Origin: Escherichia coli
GTDB taxonomy: Bacteria > Pseudomonadota > Gammaproteobacteria > Enterobacterales > Enterobacteriaceae
Assembly (NCBI GenBank): GCA_032372955.1
Contig: GCA_032372955.1_4725.1
Strand: one strand, 5' to 3'
Length of the DNA: 64,000 nt
The notes beneath the pieces were generated by a model that did no database searches, had not been told where the DNA came from, and saw nothing but the letters and a program-made list of their open reading frames with translations. The translations under genes were made by a program, and so were the position numbers. Below, piece after piece: positions 51,280 through 60,919 of this stretch (position 1 is the first letter of the stretch; every line of letters starts with the position of its first letter).

Positions 51280-51654
51280 ATGGATAACATCAGCGTTATT
51301 CGTGAGTACCGTGCCGCCATTTATGTCGGCCCAATCGTCGATGTGTTAGACCTCGCTTTACGTTCGCCATTCCCTGACCCCGATGCGCGTCACCTGATGG
51401 TTGAATATGTCATTTTACAGGCCATCTTTGATTGTGGCCTGTTTTATTCTGATCAGTTAGCTTTGGCGTATTACTTCAAGCCGGAGATAACACAACTGTT
51501 GCAGGTGTTGTCGAGGAAGGTGCAGACAGATGTTCGTAAATGTGTTGTAGGTCAATTAGAGCCGAATTTCTGGTATCGATATGAATTCGAATTAGAAAGC
51601 GCTACATTGGAATACAACATGCTCCGGTTGGTGATGATCCGACAAGGAGTTTAA
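51280..51654 (+). CDS. hypothetical protein
   Basis: ATG 51280; 124 aa; weak SD. Confidence 0.55.
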   Translation: MDNISVIREYRAAIYVGPIVDVLDLALRSPFPDPDARHLMVEYVILQAIFDCGLFYSDQLALAYYFKPEITQLLQVLSRKVQTDVRKCVVGQLEPNFWYRYEFELESATLEYNMLRLVMIRQGV

Positions 51655-51665
51655 GGAGGATCTTC

Positions 51666-51965: not shown

Positions 51966-52498
51966 TGAGTGAGAAACCGCAAGTAAAGCTATATAAATCC
52001 GGCTATACGACAATAGAATACATTGAAGGGATTCACAAAAAGAAAGGTGCGGCGTATGTGCTGCATTATTCCAAACATCACGATACGCTATTTGCTTTTA
52101 CCGTAGTAAATATGCGAAATGTGAGTAGTAATGATATCGAACGTTGGTTAAATATCCATCCGACCGATGATCGTGTTCAATTTATCGTTACGCCATGTGT
52201 TGCGTTTTCTGGTAACGCCTATCGTTTTATGGATAGCGAAGACGGCGAATTATTTCTACGTTTGTATATCACCGACATTGCGAAGACAAGATCGACACCA
52301 TCATTGATCGTTGATGAGACAAAGACGCAATACGGTATTCAGTTCGATTGTTTACCGGACGATCTCATTTTCAGTAATAAGCTATCAACCTCGGCCTGTA
52401 TTATTGCTGCTGAATTTGCGAACGTGCTGAAAGTGTTTAAACGGCAAATACCTCCCTCGAAAACACCGAGGGAGGAAGCTGTTGTTAATCAGAAGTAA
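51962..52498 (+). CDS. hypothetical protein
   Basis: ATG 51962 in ATGA overlap; ORF-track start 51881 overlaps the upstream gene. Confidence 0.6.
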   Translation: MMSEKPQVKLYKSGYTTIEYIEGIHKKKGAAYVLHYSKHHDTLFAFTVVNMRNVSSNDIERWLNIHPTDDRVQFIVTPCVAFSGNAYRFMDSEDGELFLRLYITDIAKTRSTPSLIVDETKTQYGIQFDCLPDDLIFSNKLSTSACIIAAEFANVLKVFKRQIPPSKTPREEAVVNQK

Positions 52499-53331
52499 CC
52501 GGTTTGTAGTCGAATGGCGCGACGTTTAGTTTGTGGATCGTTCCAGGCAGCAACGCCAGCCCACGTTTCGTTCAGGAATTCCTGATATGTGTTTTCAGCA
52601 TCAGCAAAGCGATCGATGTATTCCTTGAATGCACCGACTTCTTGTCCTTGTGCTGTAACACCTCTGTCAAGACGGATAACGGTTCTGTTGTAGATGTCAC
52701 TTTGCGTGGCGTATAAACAGAGTTTGTAGAAATCGTTCCAAACCTCCATGCTGAGGTTGGTAAGTTCCGGATCGTGGGCAAGGAAACAGCGTAGGCTCAG
52801 GGGAAATTGTACAGGCGTGACGTTGTTCACCATGATGGTGTTAGGCGCGATGATATCAACGTTGGCTGTACTAAGAACGTTCATGGGACCGAACGCGTTC
52901 ATCCCTTGCTGTAACGTGTTGCTTGCGGGGTTCCACCCACAAAGCTGACGTTGAAATTGGGTTTGGTTGAAAGCGCCCCATTGCCCGTTATAGTTTATTC
53001 CGTAGTTGTTCACGCTCCCTGAAATAATGGATAATGCGGACGTGATGTAACGTCCCTGCGTGGCTTCCAACGGAATGTGGAAAACATAACAGTTAATGGT
53101 GACTTCTTCGATAGTGACACCGGCATCATCAAGGGGGATAACGGTTTGTAGTCCCCCGTAGATATCGATGTCGCCGATAACCCGTTTACGGATTACCCAA
53201 TCGGTAATGATGTCTTCTACGGAACGAGGATAGCGATTACGCCAGTCGTAGCGATCGATATAGCAATACTGTAGGATATCTGCCGGTATTGTACGACAGA
53301 TACGATCTACACTGTAGTCAATAGCACCCAT
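52489..53331 (-). CDS. hypothetical protein
   Basis: ATG with AGGGGTGA SD (minus); 280 aa; 10-nt convergent overlap with 51962..52498. Confidence 0.65.
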   Translation of the reverse strand: MGAIDYSVDRICRTIPADILQYCYIDRYDWRNRYPRSVEDIITDWVIRKRVIGDIDIYGGLQTVIPLDDAGVTIEEVTINCYVFHIPLEATQGRYITSALSIISGSVNNYGINYNGQWGAFNQTQFQRQLCGWNPASNTLQQGMNAFGPMNVLSTANVDIIAPNTIMVNNVTPVQFPLSLRCFLAHDPELTNLSMEVWNDFYKLCLYATQSDIYNRTVIRLDRGVTAQGQEVGAFKEYIDRFADAENTYQEFLNETWAGVAAWNDPQTKRRAIRLQTGYF

Positions 53332-53395: not shown

Positions 53396-54376
53396 ATGCA
53401 AGAGAACCAAGTACATATTTGGGCTGTCGGTGGTTGTGGTGGCGAAATCGGCTCAGCATTTGAAGGCGAAGTCGCGAAAGGATTACACAGCATGACGTAT
53501 GTTGATACCAGCCGCGCTAACCTACGCGATAGCACACTGGGCGACGATCATATTTACATCTTTAAAGATGCAGCCGGTCGTGAGTTAGACGGTTCTGGTA
53601 AGAAGCGTGACGAGAACGCTGAACTGATCTGTTCGCAAATCCCAGGTATTCTCAATAAGCATACACCAGGTAAATTTAATATCGTGGTCTTTAGTTTGAG
53701 CGGTGGTTCAGGTTCTGTTGCCGGTCCTGCGTTGGTTGCTAACCTGCTGGAACGCGGTGAACGTGTGGTGTGTTGCATCGTTGCCTCGTTCGATGATGAG
53801 CGTCAGACGATCAACGCCGATCGCACCTTCAAAGGACTGATGGCGGCTGCAGAAGGGTTGAAGCGTCCAGTGATTGTTAGCTATCACATGAATGGCGAAA
53901 ATGGGAAATCAGAGCAGGATGTCAACCTGGATGTGCAGGTTGTTATCAGCCAGCTTTGCGTTCTGTTTTCTGGCGAGAACCGTCGTCTTGACAGCGCTGA
54001 CCTGGAAAACTTCTTAAACCATCCACGTGTTACCGGTTTGGAACCAACGATCACCGAACTGAATACGTTCATGGGATACGATTGGACGAAAGAGAACGAT
54101 AGCCCGATTGCTTTCTGTACGCTTTATCCGAAAGACGCGACAAAAGTCATGGGCGTTAGCGCTATTTACAGCTGCGATGGTTTTGTGCCTGAAAGCAGCC
54201 CAATTCGTGAAGCGACGTCGTTTGTTTTAAGTACCGATCGTTTAGGGGGTATTATCAAACAGATCGCGGACGAAGCGAAACGTTACATCGAACATCGTAA
54301 CGCGCGTCAACAGGCACCGAAAGTTGGTGACGAAACTGTAGCAGAAGCGAAGAATAGCGGTTTCTTGCTTTTCTAA
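53396..54376 (+). CDS. phuZ: PhuZ-like phage tubulin/FtsZ-family protein
   Basis: N-terminal VGGCGGEIG (T1-loop-like) and SLSGGSGSVAG (tubulin GGGTGSG signature-like); 326 aa, close to known PhuZ length; AGGAG SD. Confidence 0.7.
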   Translation: MQENQVHIWAVGGCGGEIGSAFEGEVAKGLHSMTYVDTSRANLRDSTLGDDHIYIFKDAAGRELDGSGKKRDENAELICSQIPGILNKHTPGKFNIVVFSLSGGSGSVAGPALVANLLERGERVVCCIVASFDDERQTINADRTFKGLMAAAEGLKRPVIVSYHMNGENGKSEQDVNLDVQVVISQLCVLFSGENRRLDSADLENFLNHPRVTGLEPTITELNTFMGYDWTKENDSPIAFCTLYPKDATKVMGVSAIYSCDGFVPESSPIREATSFVLSTDRLGGIIKQIADEAKRYIEHRNARQQAPKVGDETVAEAKNSGFLLF

Positions 54377-54413: not shown

Positions 54414-54614
54414 ATGTCGCTGTTTATCTGCGAACGTTGCGGTCATGTTGATAGTACCGAACTCGCTTACGAGAATCGACAAAGTGCTGGTCAGTTCCTG
54501 TGTACGAAATGCCAAGGCCGTCAATGGCATGGCTATTTTCCATATCAGCTGTATGACCCAGCAAAACACGCACATATCGTCAACCATCCTTCATTGAAAT
54601 TGGATGGTTATTAA
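54414..54614 (+). CDS. small zinc-ribbon-like protein
   Basis: 66 aa with CERCGH ... CTKCQG (two CxxC pairs); GGAG SD. Confidence 0.55.
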   Translation: MSLFICERCGHVDSTELAYENRQSAGQFLCTKCQGRQWHGYFPYQLYDPAKHAHIVNHPSLKLDGY

Positions 54615-54623
54615 GTTCTATCG

Positions 54624-54650
54624 AGCCTGTCCTTCGGGGCAGGCTTTTAT
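54624..54650 (+). terminator. rho-independent terminator with UUCG tetraloop
   Basis: agcctgtcc-ttcg-gggcaggct (9 bp, one G-U) followed by tttat. Confidence 0.65.
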
Positions 54651-54667
54651 GCCGCGTAGGAGAAAGC

Positions 54668-54988
54668 ATGGGAAAGTGGTGGGAGAAAATAAGAAAGCGG
54701 TTTAACGATTGGAATCAGGAACGGCAAGATCGTAAGGATATTGAAGTTATGCGTGGTTACCCAGCGTATACCAACACGTACCTTACGCTCTACTACAATC
54801 GCTCAAAGAAAGAATGGACATTTGAATGGGATGATTTGTTCGCTAACCCCAGACCTGCACATTGGCCATTCCACGACTGTGTTATGGTTGTCCCTCCAGA
54901 TACCAGAGCAACGGAGGATGAAATAAAGCGTGCTTGGGACGTCTTAGACGAAAGAGGTATCGGTGGTATTCGAAGAGGGAGAAAATGA
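54668..54988 (+). CDS. hypothetical protein
   Basis: ATG with AGGAG SD; 106 aa. Confidence 0.6.
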   Translation: MGKWWEKIRKRFNDWNQERQDRKDIEVMRGYPAYTNTYLTLYYNRSKKEWTFEWDDLFANPRPAHWPFHDCVMVVPPDTRATEDEIKRAWDVLDERGIGGIRRGRK

Positions 54989-55079
54989 CGTCAGAAACTC
55001 TCCTGCTTCGTTTTACGCCGTATATTTTAACTATTCCCAGATATCGTGTGTATAAACAATGGGGACTTAGGAAAAGAGT

Positions 55080-56057
55080 ATGACCAAGAGATTAGCCAGG
55101 ATCGATTTGTACACATTAGCATCGTGGGTTTCATTACCGCTTATCGATTGTCTGAGTTTGCATCATCAACGCCAGCTTTCTCCGAAGGAAAAAATGCAAT
55201 TAACCGAGTTGTTGGTGGATTTCGATCTTAATCAGAGAATGACCTGGACTCGACATGATCCTCGATATCGTCATGAATCGTTCGCAGATATTCTCGGCCC
55301 GATTTGGTACCAACCTGAATTTCGAGAAGACTTCGATGTTGTCCAGGGTATGGTAACCGAATATTTGTCTTATCATCACAATAAGCTGTTTGGTAAGAAC
55401 TGGTCGGATAACCGTATTTACGGAATAGAACGTGTGTGCGATTATGCCTATATTGTTGATCTTGGCCGCGTTCCTAAACGTCAAACAAAACCAACGCCGT
55501 TAAAAGCATTTGAGTTCCAAGAAACAGAGTATTGCGTCGATCGTAAATCAGCAACCGAACACGTTGTCCGCGTACGTAATAGTAATCCTCGAGTGATGGC
55601 GATGCCGTCAATTAACATTACGATCAATATCTGCCCGTCTGGCGCGATTGTTGAACGTCCCCAGGAGCTAACAGATGAACAATTTGAATGGCTTGGGCAA
55701 TTGGAAGAACTTCGATTGGCTCACGCAAAACGAAAAGCGGAACAACTCGCCAATGAACCCGTTTATATTAAACAAGGCCTTGCCCTTAAGGAGCGATTTA
55801 AACAACGCCGCTCCGTCTTCGGTCCGGTGCAACCCGTACTATATGAGTTTGGGGTTCCCGAGTACCGGATGGATGCTGAGTCGGTGGCAACCGCTTTCTT
55901 GGATAACGGTGAAATACATCGACAAGGTGCACGTTCTTCGGGTCCTTTTAGACCGGTTCGAGTCCAGCGTCCACGCAGACATCGGCATACTAAGTCGAGA
56001 ACAGGAAATGATGACGTGTCACGAGACATGGACCGATCTCATTACCGAACTTATTGA
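55080..56057 (+). CDS. hypothetical protein (3' portion doubtful; possible frameshift into next frame near 55900-55925)
   Basis: ATG with AGGA SD; last 50 codons are rich in rare CGA/AGA codons while the +1 frame looks coding. Confidence 0.45.
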   Translation: MTKRLARIDLYTLASWVSLPLIDCLSLHHQRQLSPKEKMQLTELLVDFDLNQRMTWTRHDPRYRHESFADILGPIWYQPEFREDFDVVQGMVTEYLSYHHNKLFGKNWSDNRIYGIERVCDYAYIVDLGRVPKRQTKPTPLKAFEFQETEYCVDRKSATEHVVRVRNSNPRVMAMPSINITINICPSGAIVERPQELTDEQFEWLGQLEELRLAHAKRKAEQLANEPVYIKQGLALKERFKQRRSVFGPVQPVLYEFGVPEYRMDAESVATAFLDNGEIHRQGARSSGPFRPVRVQRPRRHRHTKSRTGNDDVSRDMDRSHYRTY

Positions 56058-56413
56058 GCGGGCTGGCGATACAGAACGTATTTTCAATGAAGACGATCCG
56101 TCGATGGAAAGGCATGTTGACGCTTACCATGCGGCCGCGTCAGAACTTACGAATCTCACCATGGCGCTGGAGCCTGTCTTCGGTAGTGAGTTTATTCACG
56201 TATGGGAACACATGTTGGAAGGGCCTTACAATTGGGCGTTGGAGAGTTACAATGCGGCCACCTTTGTTGCGATCTTTAGAGCAATTTCAGAGAGACGATT
56301 CTAAGCCGTCGGTTATTCCGCGCCCAAGTCAGGTTTCGATACATATTCGCACACCACAGACAGGGCGTCGGTACATCATCCCATTATTAAACTACAGTGA
56401 ATATCTGTTTTCG

Positions 56414-56737
56414 ATGCTCGATGAGCGATTACCTTATTTCTCACCGAACGGAAATTATGATATTCACACGTTGCTTTACGACACGATTGAACTGTATCTG
56501 TACAAACGGAATATCTCTGGCCGTGATGTCGACATGCAACTTGAGTTCGTTCTGGATGAAGTTTTCATGCATGAAGACTACGGCCATGATGAGAAGTTCG
56601 ATTTTCGTTGTCGTTTATCGGTGATGCGAAGCGAAGTTAACCAAATCCTTCGTACGTGGATTCCACGTGTAGAAGATTGGTGGCATTTCAATTTTACGTT
56701 AGATACGAGTATGACGTTATGGTTGGTGGTGGAATAA
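56414..56737 (+). CDS. hypothetical protein (minimal model; frame is open and coding-like upstream to about 56280)
   Basis: First ATG in frame is 56414 with no clear SD; ORF-track start 56054 overlaps the preceding frame. Confidence 0.4.
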   Translation: MLDERLPYFSPNGNYDIHTLLYDTIELYLYKRNISGRDVDMQLEFVLDEVFMHEDYGHDEKFDFRCRLSVMRSEVNQILRTWIPRVEDWWHFNFTLDTSMTLWLVVE

Positions 56738-57231
56738 TGCAATCAAAGCCGTCGGCATTTGTGCGTTATCGGCAGAAACCTAATTTTCTTAATGGGAAAG
56801 ATGACGGCGTGCGGATATCGGTGTGCTTGGAAACCGTACTGGCGATGTTGTACCAGCATATGGACAAGTATACTTTCTTCGACCGCATTAACGTATCGGC
56901 TTATGACGTGCTTCAGTATACGACGTATGAGTACTGGTCGTTACGTATGCAGCGACCATTTCAATCGTGGTATCCGCCGGTATATGAAATGATAAGCGAA
57001 GAACTGTGTCAGGAACTGGTTAGCGTAGATCATGACGGTGAGTATTATGAAGCCATTTATAGTTATGTTGACGCGATCCAGGAAACCGTTAATCTGATCT
57101 TCCCGTGCTTTGACTACTCGATGACGCAGATGTTAACGGCCAGTGGGTTATTACCGAAGACCGGCGAGAACAACCTCGAGCTAGAAGGAATTCATGGATA
57201 TGTTGCCTTTTTCAACATTGAATGTGGTTGA
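56737..57231 (+). CDS. hypothetical protein
   Basis: ATG 56737 in TAATG overlap; ORF-track start 56656 overlaps the upstream gene. Confidence 0.6.
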   Translation: MQSKPSAFVRYRQKPNFLNGKDDGVRISVCLETVLAMLYQHMDKYTFFDRINVSAYDVLQYTTYEYWSLRMQRPFQSWYPPVYEMISEELCQELVSVDHDGEYYEAIYSYVDAIQETVNLIFPCFDYSMTQMLTASGLLPKTGENNLELEGIHGYVAFFNIECG

Positions 57232-57682
57232 TCGTGGAACAGATACCTATCGTCTGACGGTTACTATCCCTGATTGGTTACAAGCAGAGCTGAGCACCAT
57301 GAATGACCCAGAAGATCCGTTGCGCATAACAACGTTGTTGGTACTGGCGTTACGGTATCTTAATCGTCCCGTCTTGTCACGCGAGGCATTCGAGAATGCG
57401 TATATCCTCGGATACGTTAAACGTGAAGACATGGTGTTGTTTACGAAGATGCAGCTCTGTTTCTTAAATCAGCTATGTCTGTTCAATGTCGGACGTACAA
57501 CTAACGCACATCGTTACGGATGGGAGGTTGTACAAATCTATCCTACCGTTATGGTAGTATCTAGTTTTCGTCGTGCGTTGTGGGACGATCCAGAAAAGAC
57601 TGTGGCGTCGTTAATACATACGCCGAACAAGAGAAACACAGGATGGAAAAATACGCCACTGAGCGCCGTCGCCACGTTATAA
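57194..57682 (+). CDS. hypothetical protein
   Basis: ATG with GAAGGA SD; 162 aa. Confidence 0.6.
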   Translation: MDMLPFSTLNVVDRGTDTYRLTVTIPDWLQAELSTMNDPEDPLRITTLLVLALRYLNRPVLSREAFENAYILGYVKREDMVLFTKMQLCFLNQLCLFNVGRTTNAHRYGWEVVQIYPTVMVVSSFRRALWDDPEKTVASLIHTPNKRNTGWKNTPLSAVATL

Positions 57683-58041
57683 AACGCGATGACTACTATC
57701 TTGAGCAACTGCTCGAACAGGCGGTTAACGACATCTATAGTCAGGCAGAAGACGATTACTGTTTGTCTGGGTGGGGTACCGAAGGAAGGCAGATGCTGAT
57801 GAGGAATCTACTGCAAGAAATTGCGGATGTTGTCTTATCGGATATCGACGATGACTTTATCGATGAATACTGCGAGGAGAGATCGTTATCACGAAACCTT
57901 ATCGTGCGTATTATCGGACGTGTTTATTATCGTGTTGTCCAGGATATGGAATTCACAAAAACGTTTTATCGTGGCGGAACACTATCATCTATCCGGGTCT
58001 GGTCAGCGACGACTTTCGGATACGAATACATTTTTAAATAA
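57643..58041 (+). CDS. hypothetical protein
   Basis: First ATG 57643; ORF-track start 57580 is GTG with larger overlap. Confidence 0.5.
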   Translation: MEKYATERRRHVIKRDDYYLEQLLEQAVNDIYSQAEDDYCLSGWGTEGRQMLMRNLLQEIADVVLSDIDDDFIDEYCEERSLSRNLIVRIIGRVYYRVVQDMEFTKTFYRGGTLSSIRVWSATTFGYEYIFK

Positions 58042-58052
58042 AGGATGCTATT

Positions 58053-58466
58053 ATGCCAGCTTCTGATTTAGAAAAGATTGGCTCTGTTGTGAGTTTTGAT
58101 GTGTACGCCCCAGAACTTGGGGTTAACTTCAACGGAGTAGAAATTAGCGCCGTGTACAATTATCGTACGGCTGTGCGCAACGGCCGTGATGTAGACGCCA
58201 TTCACCAACAGATTTATTCCCGGCTCCCGTCTAGTGTACCGAACGATCCGACGAGATACAATTACGTCGAGGTCATTACAGCCGATGGCGAGTATGTGAT
58301 TCTAGGGATTCCTTGGATTAAGGAGAGTACAATCGTTGTTACCAAGACACTGATCTATAAACCCAGCATCGTTATTGAGGATGCGACCGACGTGACGAAA
58401 ATTAATCAGATTCTTAATCAGGCAGGTTACACTAAGATTGTTGCTAACGACTTGATTAATCAGTAA
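58053..58466 (+). CDS. hypothetical protein
   Basis: ATG with AAGGA SD; 137 aa. Confidence 0.65.
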   Translation: MPASDLEKIGSVVSFDVYAPELGVNFNGVEISAVYNYRTAVRNGRDVDAIHQQIYSRLPSSVPNDPTRYNYVEVITADGEYVILGIPWIKESTIVVTKTLIYKPSIVIEDATDVTKINQILNQAGYTKIVANDLINQ

Positions 58467-58664
58467 ACTTTTACATACAGTACTATATATTTTGAGTGGT
58501 TAGTGCCATCAGTGAAATAAGATAGATTCGTGTTTTTTATTCCTTCTTTGGCGAATCGCCTCTCGTGTTACAACCTCCCTCTGATCTAGCATCATTGTGC
58601 ACGAGAGAAGATCTTGTTTCACGAACATCATCGATATCTTTCTGTCAGTTATTATCCTTTTTAA

Positions 58665-58698
58665 CCGATCTGGCTTCGGCTGGATCGGTTCTTTTTTA
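58665..58698 (+). terminator. rho-independent terminator with UUCG tetraloop
   Basis: ccgatctggc-ttcg-gctggatcgg (10 bp, two G-U) followed by ttctttttta. Confidence 0.7.
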
Positions 58699-58765: not shown

Positions 58766-60919
58766 ATGGAAAATCCGTTCTTTTACGATGAAAACGGATA
58801 TGGTCGTACGTTGGATATGACCAAAGAAGCGGTACAGGATTATACCCTGTTCTTAATGCGCACGCGTGGGATATCTCAGCAGGAAGCGTTGCAGTTTGTT
58901 CTTGAAACGGTTCGTCCTGGTGGAAAATACGGGATGGTTGATCCCGACTGCCTGGTATTAACACAGCGTACCGAAGGAAATCGAGAAAAAGAAGTCATCA
59001 AGTTCAGCCAATACTTCAACGATATTAAAGAAAATAATTTAATTATCACGCCGGTATGGGCTAACTGTTATCCGCGTGAAACACGTTCCAGTGTGTTAAG
59101 CGACTTCGCGGTTGAAAACGGTAAGTTGCGTAAGAAACAAAAGAAACAAATGTCGATAGCACAAGCACACGGACGTAAAGACGAAGCGGAGCTACACGAT
59201 AAACGACAAACCAACACCAAGTTAGACAACAACAGTTTGTCAGGAACCCAGGCGTCCAAGTTCAACCCTTTTTATAATCCGATTGCGCATCCAAGTTTAA
59301 CGACAACATGTCGCTGTGCTTCAGGTTCAGCCAATGCGAACAACGAACGCTTCCTTGCGGGCAATTTCCATTATTACGATTGTGATATCGCAATTGAAAA
59401 CATCGTGAGTATTGTCCGTAACAGCGATCGTAAGGCCATTGAGCAGGTAATGGTAAAATACAAACTGCATTACCCTACGCCGGAAGAGGTTTGGGCTAAC
59501 GTATCGAAATGCTTGCATCGATATACTTTCGACCCAGAGAAAGAGCTGACCATCCGGGAGCTAATTACCGGTTTAACGCCATTAGAACGCGCCTGCTACA
59601 TGTACAGCAATAACCTGTACTCGTTACGTGAGCTTAATCCTGAATTCGTTCGAGATTTTCTTGATTCGTTATGTGAGCTGGCATCCGAACCTGTTGAAAC
59701 GATGGAAGAGGCTAAAGCCATTATTGCTTCCATGGATAACAACACGGTCGCTTGGATCACAGCACAATGTACGGAGTTCTTGAATGGGGAGGCGATTTAC
59801 GTAGCGCTAGAAAAAGGAAATGAACTTGGTTATCGTCTTACCGCAGCAACGACAAAATTAATGCTGCAGCGTATCCAAAGCTACGCTGATTTGATTATGG
59901 CGTTCTGGCGTACCGAGAACCAACCGGCTGGAGTTTATGCTTTCCCGTCGGCAATCCGTGAAGTGGGTGTGTTGTCTGATACCGACTCGACGGTGTTTAC
60001 CTGCCAGGAGTGGGTTCAGTGGCGATTTGGAAATATGGAGATCAATCCAATTTCGACGCGCTTAGCAAACACGCTTATCTATCTGGTTACGCAGATTACG
60101 GTTCATCTGATGGCGATGTGTTCTGGTAATATCGGTGTAGCGAAAGAGCATATGTACGTGATGGAAATGAAGAACGAATATATGTTCTTGATTCTGTCGT
60201 TAACCTCGATGGGTAAAAACTATTACGGTTACATGACCATGCGTGAAGGGGTTCCTATCAATCCACCGAAGCTGGAATTGAAAGGTCCGGTTATGCGTGA
60301 TGCGTCAGCACCAAAAATGATCGTCAAACGTGTTGAACGCATGATGTGCGGTATCATGGATAAGCTGTTACGTAATGAGAAGATCAGCATTCGATTGGTT
60401 CTTGACGATATTATCTCGTTAGAAAACGAAATCGTTGAGTCCATGAAACGCGGTGATCCCGATTTCTTAACACGTGTTAAAGTGAAGCCACATGTTGCGG
60501 TAACGAAACAGTCTTACGATATGTGGGAAGAGGTGTTTGCTCAATCGTACGGCCATTGCCAGGAACCACCCTATATTGGGGTTCGTGTGCCGTTGGCGAC
60601 GAAGAACAAAACGCTTCTTAACGATTGGATTGATTCCTGGGAGGATAAAGGGTTACAACAACGTTTCCGTGATTGGATTGTACGTAACGATAAGAAAACG
60701 ATAAGCAACTTAACGATACCATTACCGGTGATCGAAGCCTCCGGGCTTCCCGATATCTTTATTCAAGGGATGGATATTCGTCGATTGATTTCTACGCTCG
60801 TGCGTTCGTATTACGCGTTAATGGAAAGTTACGGTATTTTCATCTCGAATAAAAACAATACATTGTTAGCCCAAGACATTGCAGCAAGTTATTTACCGAA
60901 GCGAGAAACCACAGAGTAA
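58766..60919 (+). CDS. hypothetical protein, 717 aa
   Basis: ATG with GGAGG SD; contains acidic SDTDS and GKNYYGY motifs of unknown significance. Confidence 0.7.
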   Translation: MENPFFYDENGYGRTLDMTKEAVQDYTLFLMRTRGISQQEALQFVLETVRPGGKYGMVDPDCLVLTQRTEGNREKEVIKFSQYFNDIKENNLIITPVWANCYPRETRSSVLSDFAVENGKLRKKQKKQMSIAQAHGRKDEAELHDKRQTNTKLDNNSLSGTQASKFNPFYNPIAHPSLTTTCRCASGSANANNERFLAGNFHYYDCDIAIENIVSIVRNSDRKAIEQVMVKYKLHYPTPEEVWANVSKCLHRYTFDPEKELTIRELITGLTPLERACYMYSNNLYSLRELNPEFVRDFLDSLCELASEPVETMEEAKAIIASMDNNTVAWITAQCTEFLNGEAIYVALEKGNELGYRLTAATTKLMLQRIQSYADLIMAFWRTENQPAGVYAFPSAIREVGVLSDTDSTVFTCQEWVQWRFGNMEINPISTRLANTLIYLVTQITVHLMAMCSGNIGVAKEHMYVMEMKNEYMFLILSLTSMGKNYYGYMTMREGVPINPPKLELKGPVMRDASAPKMIVKRVERMMCGIMDKLLRNEKISIRLVLDDIISLENEIVESMKRGDPDFLTRVKVKPHVAVTKQSYDMWEEVFAQSYGHCQEPPYIGVRVPLATKNKTLLNDWIDSWEDKGLQQRFRDWIVRNDKKTISNLTIPLPVIEASGLPDIFIQGMDIRRLISTLVRSYYALMESYGIFISNKNNTLLAQDIAASYLPKRETTE

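Follow-up and report, generated by a model that had tools for sequence, protein, structure and literature searches.

The DNA analysed here (the window) is a stretch of 64,000 nt from an Escherichia coli assembly (GCA_032372955.1, contig GCA_032372955.1_4725.1). Over positions 54600-57300 it shares 98.5% identity with vB_EcoM_Goslar (MK327938), a jumbo phage of Escherichia that forms a nucleus and is used as a model of such phages. Between 55080 and 56737 three open reading frames (ORFs) follow each other on the same strand, each shifted by one nucleotide relative to its predecessor: 55080..56057 (325 aa, frame 0), 55675..56304 (209 aa, frame +1) and 56054..56737 (227 aa, frame +2). The genes in these frames are called A, B and C in the following. 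Mechanically the ORFs overlap by 383 and 251 nt, and in this respect we could reproduce all coordinates of an earlier reading of the sequence (the original prediction), which had left a choice between three small overlapping genes with internal starts and a single protein of about 550 aa disrupted by two +1 shifts. The analysis points to the first of these. With a probability of about 0.88 the locus would consist of three separate protein-coding genes that overlap out of frame, and not of one frameshifted gene. Separate homologous genes are present in all lineages compared, with no indels, with dual selection and with conserved Shine-Dalgarno (SD) sequences followed by ATG; from the sequence we infer which start is used by B and that all three proteins are produced. 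The features discussed are collected in Table 1.

Close relatives were compared in an alignment of the Goslar clade comprising 13 genomes: the window, Goslar and 11 other independently assembled relatives. Over 1,901 nt (55000-56900) the window aligned with the 12 relatives without any gap at 88-99% identity. The phase of the variable sites changes along this alignment. Wobble positions of frame 0 dominate up to ~55890, those of frame +1 from ~55899 to 56232 and those of frame +2 from 56305 onwards. Because the variation falls on the wobble positions of each frame in turn, all three frames are under purifying selection, and the layout is stable. The succession of frames predicted earlier from codon usage agrees with this phase pattern, but the position near 55900 is no true switch, as frame 0 codes up to ~55990.

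More distant relatives were found by protein searches. An exhaustive phmmer search with A detected P0007 (334 aa, 32% identity, E = 1e-38) and P0008 (280 aa, 29% identity, E = 8e-23), encoded on contigs of the lineages L018 and L019, respectively. Both contigs are syntenic with the window and carry, in this order, DUF7484 and PhuZ, then a small gene followed by A, and after several further small genes SH3DP and the divergent DNA polymerase. In BLASTP comparisons the small genes downstream of A in L018 and L019 matched B (E = 5e-8 and 5e-10) as well as C (E = 4e-29 and 3e-26), and in both lineages gene calling has produced three separate genes from these ORFs; the comparison of orthologous loci, which had been suggested as a check in the original prediction, thus yields three genes where they have been called, an outcome that the prediction had named as refuting its frameshift reading. 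A profile search with C added three more lineages (L021-25, L026-28 and L029). Altogether the layout is kept in 25 genomes from six lineages. In every lineage the frame of B is A+1 and that of C is B+1, and the deep lineages, whose proteins are ~30% identical, have the same A-B-C layout. The three-gene layout is therefore ancestral, and the overlaps are ancient. A fused A+B+C homolog turned up neither among 1.84 billion representatives nor in a search of 5.8 billion proteins, and a conceptual A+B+C fusion used as the query in the latter retrieved 325-aa A proteins only. Searches of each ORF against 50,697 GenBank phages by tblastn found Goslar itself only, and scans of IMG/VR close Goslar relatives only.

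The counts of variable third positions, which were taken within the Goslar clade, reveal where two frames are constrained at once. In frame 0, 117 of 252 third positions (46%) are variable at 55083-55839 and 2 of 50 (4%) at 55840-55990 (p = 8e-10). In frame +1 the count of 36/59 (61%) at 56058-56232 compares with 7/39 (18%) at 55873-55990 (p = 3e-5) and with 0/23 at 56233-56301 (p = 1e-7), while in frame +2 variation affects 68 of 144 third positions at 56305-56734 and none of the 17 at 56252-56304 (p = 5e-5). The near-absence of variation at ~55840-55990 is explained by selected protein sequence in both frames. RNA structure does not explain the lost synonymous variation. The folding z-scores of +0.44 (55840..55990), +0.21 (56252..56304) and -0.96 give no stable structure, and a scan against Rfam gave no family, the sole match being one to snoZ30a at chance level (18 bits compared with a gathering score of 80, E = 0.78).

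The deep lineages allow the two frames to be compared directly, with position 55897 of the window as the anchor. In the moderately diverged pair L021/L029 frame +1 is the better kept one from -30 to +55 (9/10 against 3/10 residues identical) and frame 0 from +60 to +100 (6/10 against 1-3/10). Such an alternation of the better-conserved frame is the mark of genuine dual coding. Conserved frame +1 segments could be aligned upstream of every annotated start of B (window, TGWMLSRWQPLSWITVKYIDKVHVLRVLLDRF; L021, TAMVIRSFQPISWMTVKYVKPVNIIRLLLDRF; L029, TAMALKTFQPISWMTVKYVTKLNIVRVLFDRF; L019, TGILLNQWQPLCWVTVSYVNKLMVL--RF), and the N-terminal helix of B is conserved in all lineages.

By its composition the Arg-rich frame-0 tail of A looks non-coding. 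Frame 0 nevertheless remains protein-coding to ~55990, past the supposed switch at ~55900, because the basic tail is conserved in homologs of ~30% identity: FRPVRVQRPRRHRH of A aligns with LRPVRRQRRSSRR of P0007, and the motif (RPVRVQRPRR) is also found in L021, L026 and L029 while it is absent in L019. The very end of A is a different matter. A CGA to TGA change at 56046 in one Goslar-clade genome (L014), silent in frame +1, makes A four codons shorter, and this premature stop shows that A can do without its last ~20 codons.

For C the start at ATG 56252 is supported by its sequence context. Its SD sequence sits in the conserved (L/V)E(S/H)(Y/F)(N/D) motif of B. At the homologous site of L018, L021, L026 and L029 a GGAG is followed by ATG 3-6 nt further on (best anti-SD duplex, -5.6 to -6.2), so that SD and ATG are present in 5 of the 6 lineages. 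The C homologs have 160-176 aa in all lineages. By contrast, the first 198 nt of the frame +2 ORF (56054-56251) contain stops in Goslar, L015, L016 and L002-4. As frame +2 is not kept open upstream of 56252, the true overlap of B and C is 53 nt instead of 251. The original prediction had named ATG 56414 as a possible start, which does not fit, since the conserved N-terminal segment of C (KPS.IPR..QVS.HIR.PQ.G) lies upstream of this codon. GTG 56186 had also been considered as a frame +2 start and was dropped when, with more genomes, 56182-56232 showed ordinary frame +1 wobble variation.

Table 1. Features of the A/B/C locus and its surroundings (positions refer to the window; energies are for pairing with the anti-SD sequence)
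Feature	Position	Strand	Remarks
Gene A (homolog of Goslar_00198 / QBO63990)	55080..56057	+	325 aa, frame 0; 99.4% identity to the Goslar protein
Basic C-terminal motif of A, RPVRVQRPRRHRH	55950..55988	+	frame 0, conserved
Run-on end of A	55991..56057	+	frame 0, overlaps B; unconstrained, many nonsynonymous changes
Gene B, most likely full extent	55675..56304	+	209 aa, frame +1; covers Goslar_00197 (QBO63989)
Run-in of B	codons 1 to ~65		frame +1; sequence not conserved, core from ~55870
Putative SD of B, AGGAG	55663..55667	+	7-nt spacer to ATG 55675; -6.6 kcal/mol
Putative SD of B in L018, GGAGGA	8 nt before ATG		-9.5
Putative SD of B in L021-28, GAGGA	7 nt before ATG		-5.9
Putative SD of B in L029, GAGGAG	6 nt before ATG		-8.9
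Putative SD of B in L019, GGAGGA	8 nt before ATG		-9.3; at another site, right after a frame +1 stop specific to this lineage
Alternative internal starts of B, ATG 55873 and GTG 55909	55873..55911	+	fallback candidates without SD; -3.3 and -3.1
GenBank start of Goslar_00197, ATG-ATG	56008..56013	+	not conserved as a start; SD energies -3.0 and -4.3
Core A/B dual-coding zone	55840..55990	+	frame +1, first conserved helix of B (…WQPLSWITVKYIDKVHVLRVLLDRFESSV…); frame 0, linker and basic tail of A
Gene C (homolog of Goslar_00196 / QBO63988)	56252..56737	+	161 aa, frame +2
Putative SD of C, GGAGAG	56241..56246	+	5-nt spacer to ATG 56252; -6.4 kcal/mol
B/C dual-coding overlap	56252..56304	+	53 nt; third-position variation zero in both frames
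Goslar_00198 in GenBank	55080-56057	+	hypothetical protein, 325 aa
Goslar_00197 in GenBank	start at ATG 56008	+	hypothetical protein, 98 aa
Goslar_00196 in GenBank	start at ATG 56252	+	hypothetical protein, 161 aa
DUF7484 protein	52489-53331	-	conserved syntenic landmark near A/B/C
PhuZ tubulin	53396-54376		ORF near A/B/C; conserved syntenic landmark
Goslar_00200	54414-54614		66-aa protein with two CxxC pairs
Terminator annotated in Goslar	~54625-54644		upstream edge of the gene run
SH3DP-domain protein	58053-58466		conserved syntenic landmark
Strong terminator-like hairpin and T-run	58663-58690		downstream edge of the gene run
Divergent DNA polymerase (PF20286)	58766-60919		conserved syntenic landmark

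Where B starts is the more difficult question. We hold with moderate confidence that translation would begin at ATG 55675, 383 nt before the stop of A. Relative to the anchor the frame of B opens at -168 in L019 and at -225 in all the others (Goslar clade, L018, L021-28 and L029), and in 6/6 lineages the first frame +1 ATG after the stop has a strong SD sequence at a spacing of 6-8 nt. This combination of SD sequence, ATG and stop-free frame is found in all 25 genomes. Upstream of the conserved core of B, frame +1 is free of stops for 44-63 codons, where 1-2.3 stops would be expected. In a randomisation the synonymous codons of A were resampled while its protein was kept, and we asked how often an ATG, an SD sequence at least as strong and a stop-free frame up to the core of B occurred jointly. 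The joint P values were 0.0054 for the window, 0.020 for L018, 0.0008 for L029 and 0.037 for L019, and Fisher combination of the four gives ~5e-6. A second synonymous dip within A, at 55651-55719, falls on the initiation region of B (3/23 variable sites against 114/229 elsewhere, p = 7e-4). On a contig lacking the 5' end of A a gene caller called the 209-aa ORF (P0004). The predicted tryptic peptides NNSPMNPFILNK, SDLNNAAPSSVR and CNPYYMSLGFPSTGWMLSR lie in the run-in, the part of B that precedes the core.

A number of points weigh against this start, or against the three-gene reading as a whole. The SD sequence of B is built from Gln-Glu codons of the conserved motif PQELTDEQFEW of A, and SD and ATG are partly forced by its ELTDE; for ATG and SD alone the randomisation gives P values of 0.05-0.2 in 4/5 lineages. 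The first ~65 codons of B show no amino-acid conservation (in the alignment across lineages it begins only at about residue 64), and the synonymous sites of A vary normally at 55720-55839; taken together, these two observations suggest that this part of B can be no more than a sequence-independent run-in. GTG 55909, present in 13/13 Goslar-clade genomes, could be the real start of B. The AlphaFold2 (AF2) models are weak, with a mean predicted local distance difference test score (pLDDT) of 54-57, and the independent deep lineages number only ~4. A literature search for proteomics or ribosome profiling of the A, B and C proteins found none. The accessions of the three proteins are not listed in the mass-spectrometry supplements on the Goslar virion.

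These points add up to an alternative that is possible, though rather unlikely: B might start close to its core, at ATG 55873 or GTG 55909, without the help of an SD sequence, in which case the overlap with A would be 149-185 nt long and the signal at 55675 a by-product of the ELTDE motif. It fits the onset of frame +1 conservation at ~55870 and the presence, in every lineage, of an initiator codon at -27 to -21 or at +6 to +12 of the anchor. GTG 55909 was initially preferred by us and has been superseded by the SD-equipped ATG 55675. The SD energies of the core-proximal candidates (ATG 55843, ATG 55873, GTG 55909 and GTG 55927) are -3.0 to -3.3, which is background level compared with the -5.4 to -9.3 of 9/10 neighbouring genes. 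Nor is any of the candidate codons kept across lineages: L011 and L005 have ACG in place of ATG 55873, the codon homologous to GTG 55909 is GTC in L019 and ATC in L026, and the codon at 55903 is ATA in the Goslar clade. Moreover, a start near the core leaves three observations unexplained, namely the long stop-free run (P of an open frame 0.05-0.36 per lineage), the SD and ATG of L019 that have been relocated to just behind a lineage-specific stop, and the synonymous dip at 55651-55719.

The start of Goslar_00197 given in GenBank, which was also one of the internal starts of the original prediction, does not hold. The ATG-ATG at 56008-56013 reads ACA-CTG in L016 and L002-4, and its first ATG is ACG in L011 and L005, so that ATG 56008 is mutated in 6/13 Goslar-clade genomes. 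A homologous ATG is absent in L021, L026 and L029. Frame +1 is under selection all the same. In the AF2 model of B (mean pLDDT 54) residues 1-72 are disordered and a helix bundle begins at residue 74 (nt 55894), which would be 38 residues upstream of the GenBank start. Although of low confidence, the models of A and B agree with the three-gene reading.

One side observation concerns the run-in itself. Between the closely related L018 and L021 all differences at -150 to -120 of the anchor (~55747-55777) are at first positions of frame 0; over this stretch frame +1 of the run-in is 10/10 identical, whereas frame 0 has 2-4 amino-acid changes per 10 residues. This could be due to selection on the run-in in that clade, or to chance.

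A very unlikely alternative to three separate genes is programmed +1 frameshifting near 55870-55950 and again, into frame +2, near 56275, which would yield A-B or A-B-C fusions by a slip in the ribosomal P site beside a codon that is decoded slowly, as in prfB and Ty1. Well-known sites of this type are CUU-UGA-C with an upstream SD sequence in prfB of E. coli and CUU-AGG-C in yeast Ty1. As in these systems coding passes from frame 0 into frame +1, and each junction has a TTT AGA in its incoming frame (55947-52 and 56274-79), a string that resembles the Ty1 site. All six lineages share the same relative frames (+1, +1), the core-proximal start candidates of B all lack an SD sequence, and gene callers miss B in most relatives. 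However, a fixed frame relation is expected anyway in dual-coding overlaps, the frames being frozen because indels there would hurt two proteins. Conserved frame +1 sequence (FQPISWMTVKY...) precedes the first TTT AGA, so a shift at this site cannot account for it, and the motif itself is TTT CGA in L002-4 and L016 and ATT CGA in L029; a Ty1-like site at TTT AGA was rejected on both counts. Where frame +1 constraint sets in, and ahead of that point, no nucleotide motif is kept, and neither a stimulatory RNA structure nor an Rfam frameshift element was found. In contrast to prfB and Ty1, A/B/C thus have no conserved shift site or stimulator, the downstream frames have conserved SD and ATG starts of their own, and the zero-frame product runs on past the junction into a conserved tail. 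Among the conserved recoding events of tailed phages the best known is the -1 frameshift of the tail assembly chaperone genes G/GT, with two overlapping ORFs. It differs in its direction, its slippery heptamer and its tail-gene context, whereas A/B/C lie between PhuZ tubulin and DNA polymerase and have no conserved heptamer.

That the locus is a broken gene, in which an originally single ~550-aa ORF has been split by an indel introduced in sequencing or assembly or is decaying as a pseudogene, has nothing but the staggered frames themselves in its favour and a negligible chance of being correct in view of zero indels among 13 independent assemblies, purifying selection in each frame, the recurrence of the three-frame layout in lineages of ~30% identity and the lack of a fused homolog in the searches described above.

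In the preferred reading, with three separate genes, a single mRNA would have three independent sites of initiation: ATG 55080 for A, an internal SD sequence with ATG for B, and GGAGAG with ATG 56252 for C. The internal start signals would be written in conserved codons of the upstream protein, with the SD sequence coming from a Glu codon (GAG) and the ATG from a codon for Asp or Asn that has G after it. Ribosomes translating B would then read ~65 stop-free, unconserved codons before they reach the helical core at ~55870. The original prediction was thus right in kind where it considered three small genes with internal starts, each downstream frame having its own SD sequence and start; its start codons for B and C were wrong, while the coordinate 55675 that it gave as the beginning of an ORF is the most likely start of B. 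Its other option, one protein with two +1 shifts, is contradicted by the absence of indels, selection in all frames, the separate SD and ATG signals and the conserved frame-0 tail, be the shifts sequencing errors, decay (the 1,901 nt are gap-free in 13 genomes) or programmed recoding (the shift-prone junction site is not conserved). A minor A-B trans-frame product may be made in addition. It is tempting, yet for the time being doubtful, to see more than compaction in the arrangement: initiation of B 383 nt inside A would lead to ribosome traffic in two frames, and this might serve as a regulatory coupling that sets the A:B:C ratios. Equally tentative is the idea that the design with a start 383 nt inside A has been kept across deep chimallivirus lineages and was rebuilt in L019 after a new stop had arisen.

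Overprinted genes are known from small phages, examples being B in A, E in D, and K of phiX174 and Rz1 in Rz of lambda. There, as in A/B/C, the downstream gene has its own SD sequence and ATG inside the upstream gene in another frame, both frames are under selection, synonymous variation is suppressed and one partner is disordered or less constrained. There are also differences. A/B/C belong to a jumbo phage of 237 kb with little pressure for compaction, their overlaps, 383 and 53 nt long, are terminal and form a chain from gene to gene instead of being fully nested, and ~200 nt of the A/B overlap would constrain only the openness of the B frame. Another system worth comparing is the lysis gene L of MS2, which lies in frame +1 over the coat/replicase junction and requires termination-reinitiation by ribosomes leaving the coat frame. 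Like L, B is a downstream +1 ORF that spans the end of the upstream gene, with a weak local start context; in contrast to L, the A/B locus has a conserved canonical SD sequence and ATG and needs no upstream stop nearby. The locus is thus a well-documented and statistically well-supported new case of the already known overprinted phage genes and calls for no new mechanism. What makes it unusual is that out-of-frame overlaps so long and ancient occur in a phage whose genome is very large and has no evident need to save space. Coupled expression of a small module between PhuZ and DNA polymerase is indicated by the start signals of B and C inside conserved upstream motifs.

These results have practical consequences for annotation. 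In most metagenomic relatives (L002-L004, L021-L029) the B homolog has not been called, leaving a gap of ~220 nt between A and C, and in Goslar, L018 and L019 B has been called from non-conserved internal ATGs. The long overlap with A thus leads to B being missed systematically. The GenBank start of Goslar_00197 cuts off the first conserved helix of the protein, and anyone cloning, tagging or deleting A, B or C in Goslar according to the current annotation would probably use wrong boundaries and put two proteins at risk at once. Goslar_00197 and the uncalled homologs should be re-annotated.

Scans of the three proteins against Pfam and PHROGs gave no family match. The AF2 model of A has a mean pLDDT of 57; most of residues 1-130 reach 70-85, whereas residues 242-325 stay below 50. 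This makes us modestly confident that A is composed of a folded N-terminal part and a disordered C-terminal third. When this model was searched against BFVD only Goslar's own protein scored above the threshold. Sub-threshold matches of the N-terminal domain (E 0.03-0.3) were mostly to uncharacterised chimallivirus proteins (201phi2-1, Noxifer, SL2, RP12 and Desertfox); they hint that A may belong to a wider chimallivirus family, for which the model is too weak to be conclusive. As a speculation, the basic tail of A might bind nucleic acids or a partner.

A, B and C lie inside a run of genes from ~54668 to 58466 that is flanked by two terminator-type signals, and they probably belong to an eight-gene operon (54668-58466). 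Five successive junctions within this run overlap, and the Goslar_00194/00193 junction (57600-57690) shows a local loss of variation like that in the A/B and B/C overlaps. A scan for sigma-70 promoters gave a signal at the level of shuffled sequences only. Outside the locus the ungapped match to Goslar fails at 51600-51664 and from 58538 on, which points to indels or exchanged sequence at both sites; the second is intergenic and immediately precedes the terminator hairpin. Some caution is required with gene numbers, since recent papers on Goslar number the genes differently from the GenBank locus tags: in that literature a vRNAP subunit is called 'gp196', a RecA homolog 'gp193' and chimallin 'gp246'. 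Because the schemes differ, such numbers should not be applied to Goslar_00196-198 until the accessions have been compared, and we have rejected 'gp196' and 'gp193' as genes of the A/B/C locus, as they are other genes under another numbering. Finally, a gene of the Goslar_00200 type (62-66 aa) adjoins PhuZ in all lineages, and Goslar_00200 itself shows weak, sub-threshold matches to zinc-ribbon families of Pfam (TFIIB/Elf1-like, E ~2e-3).

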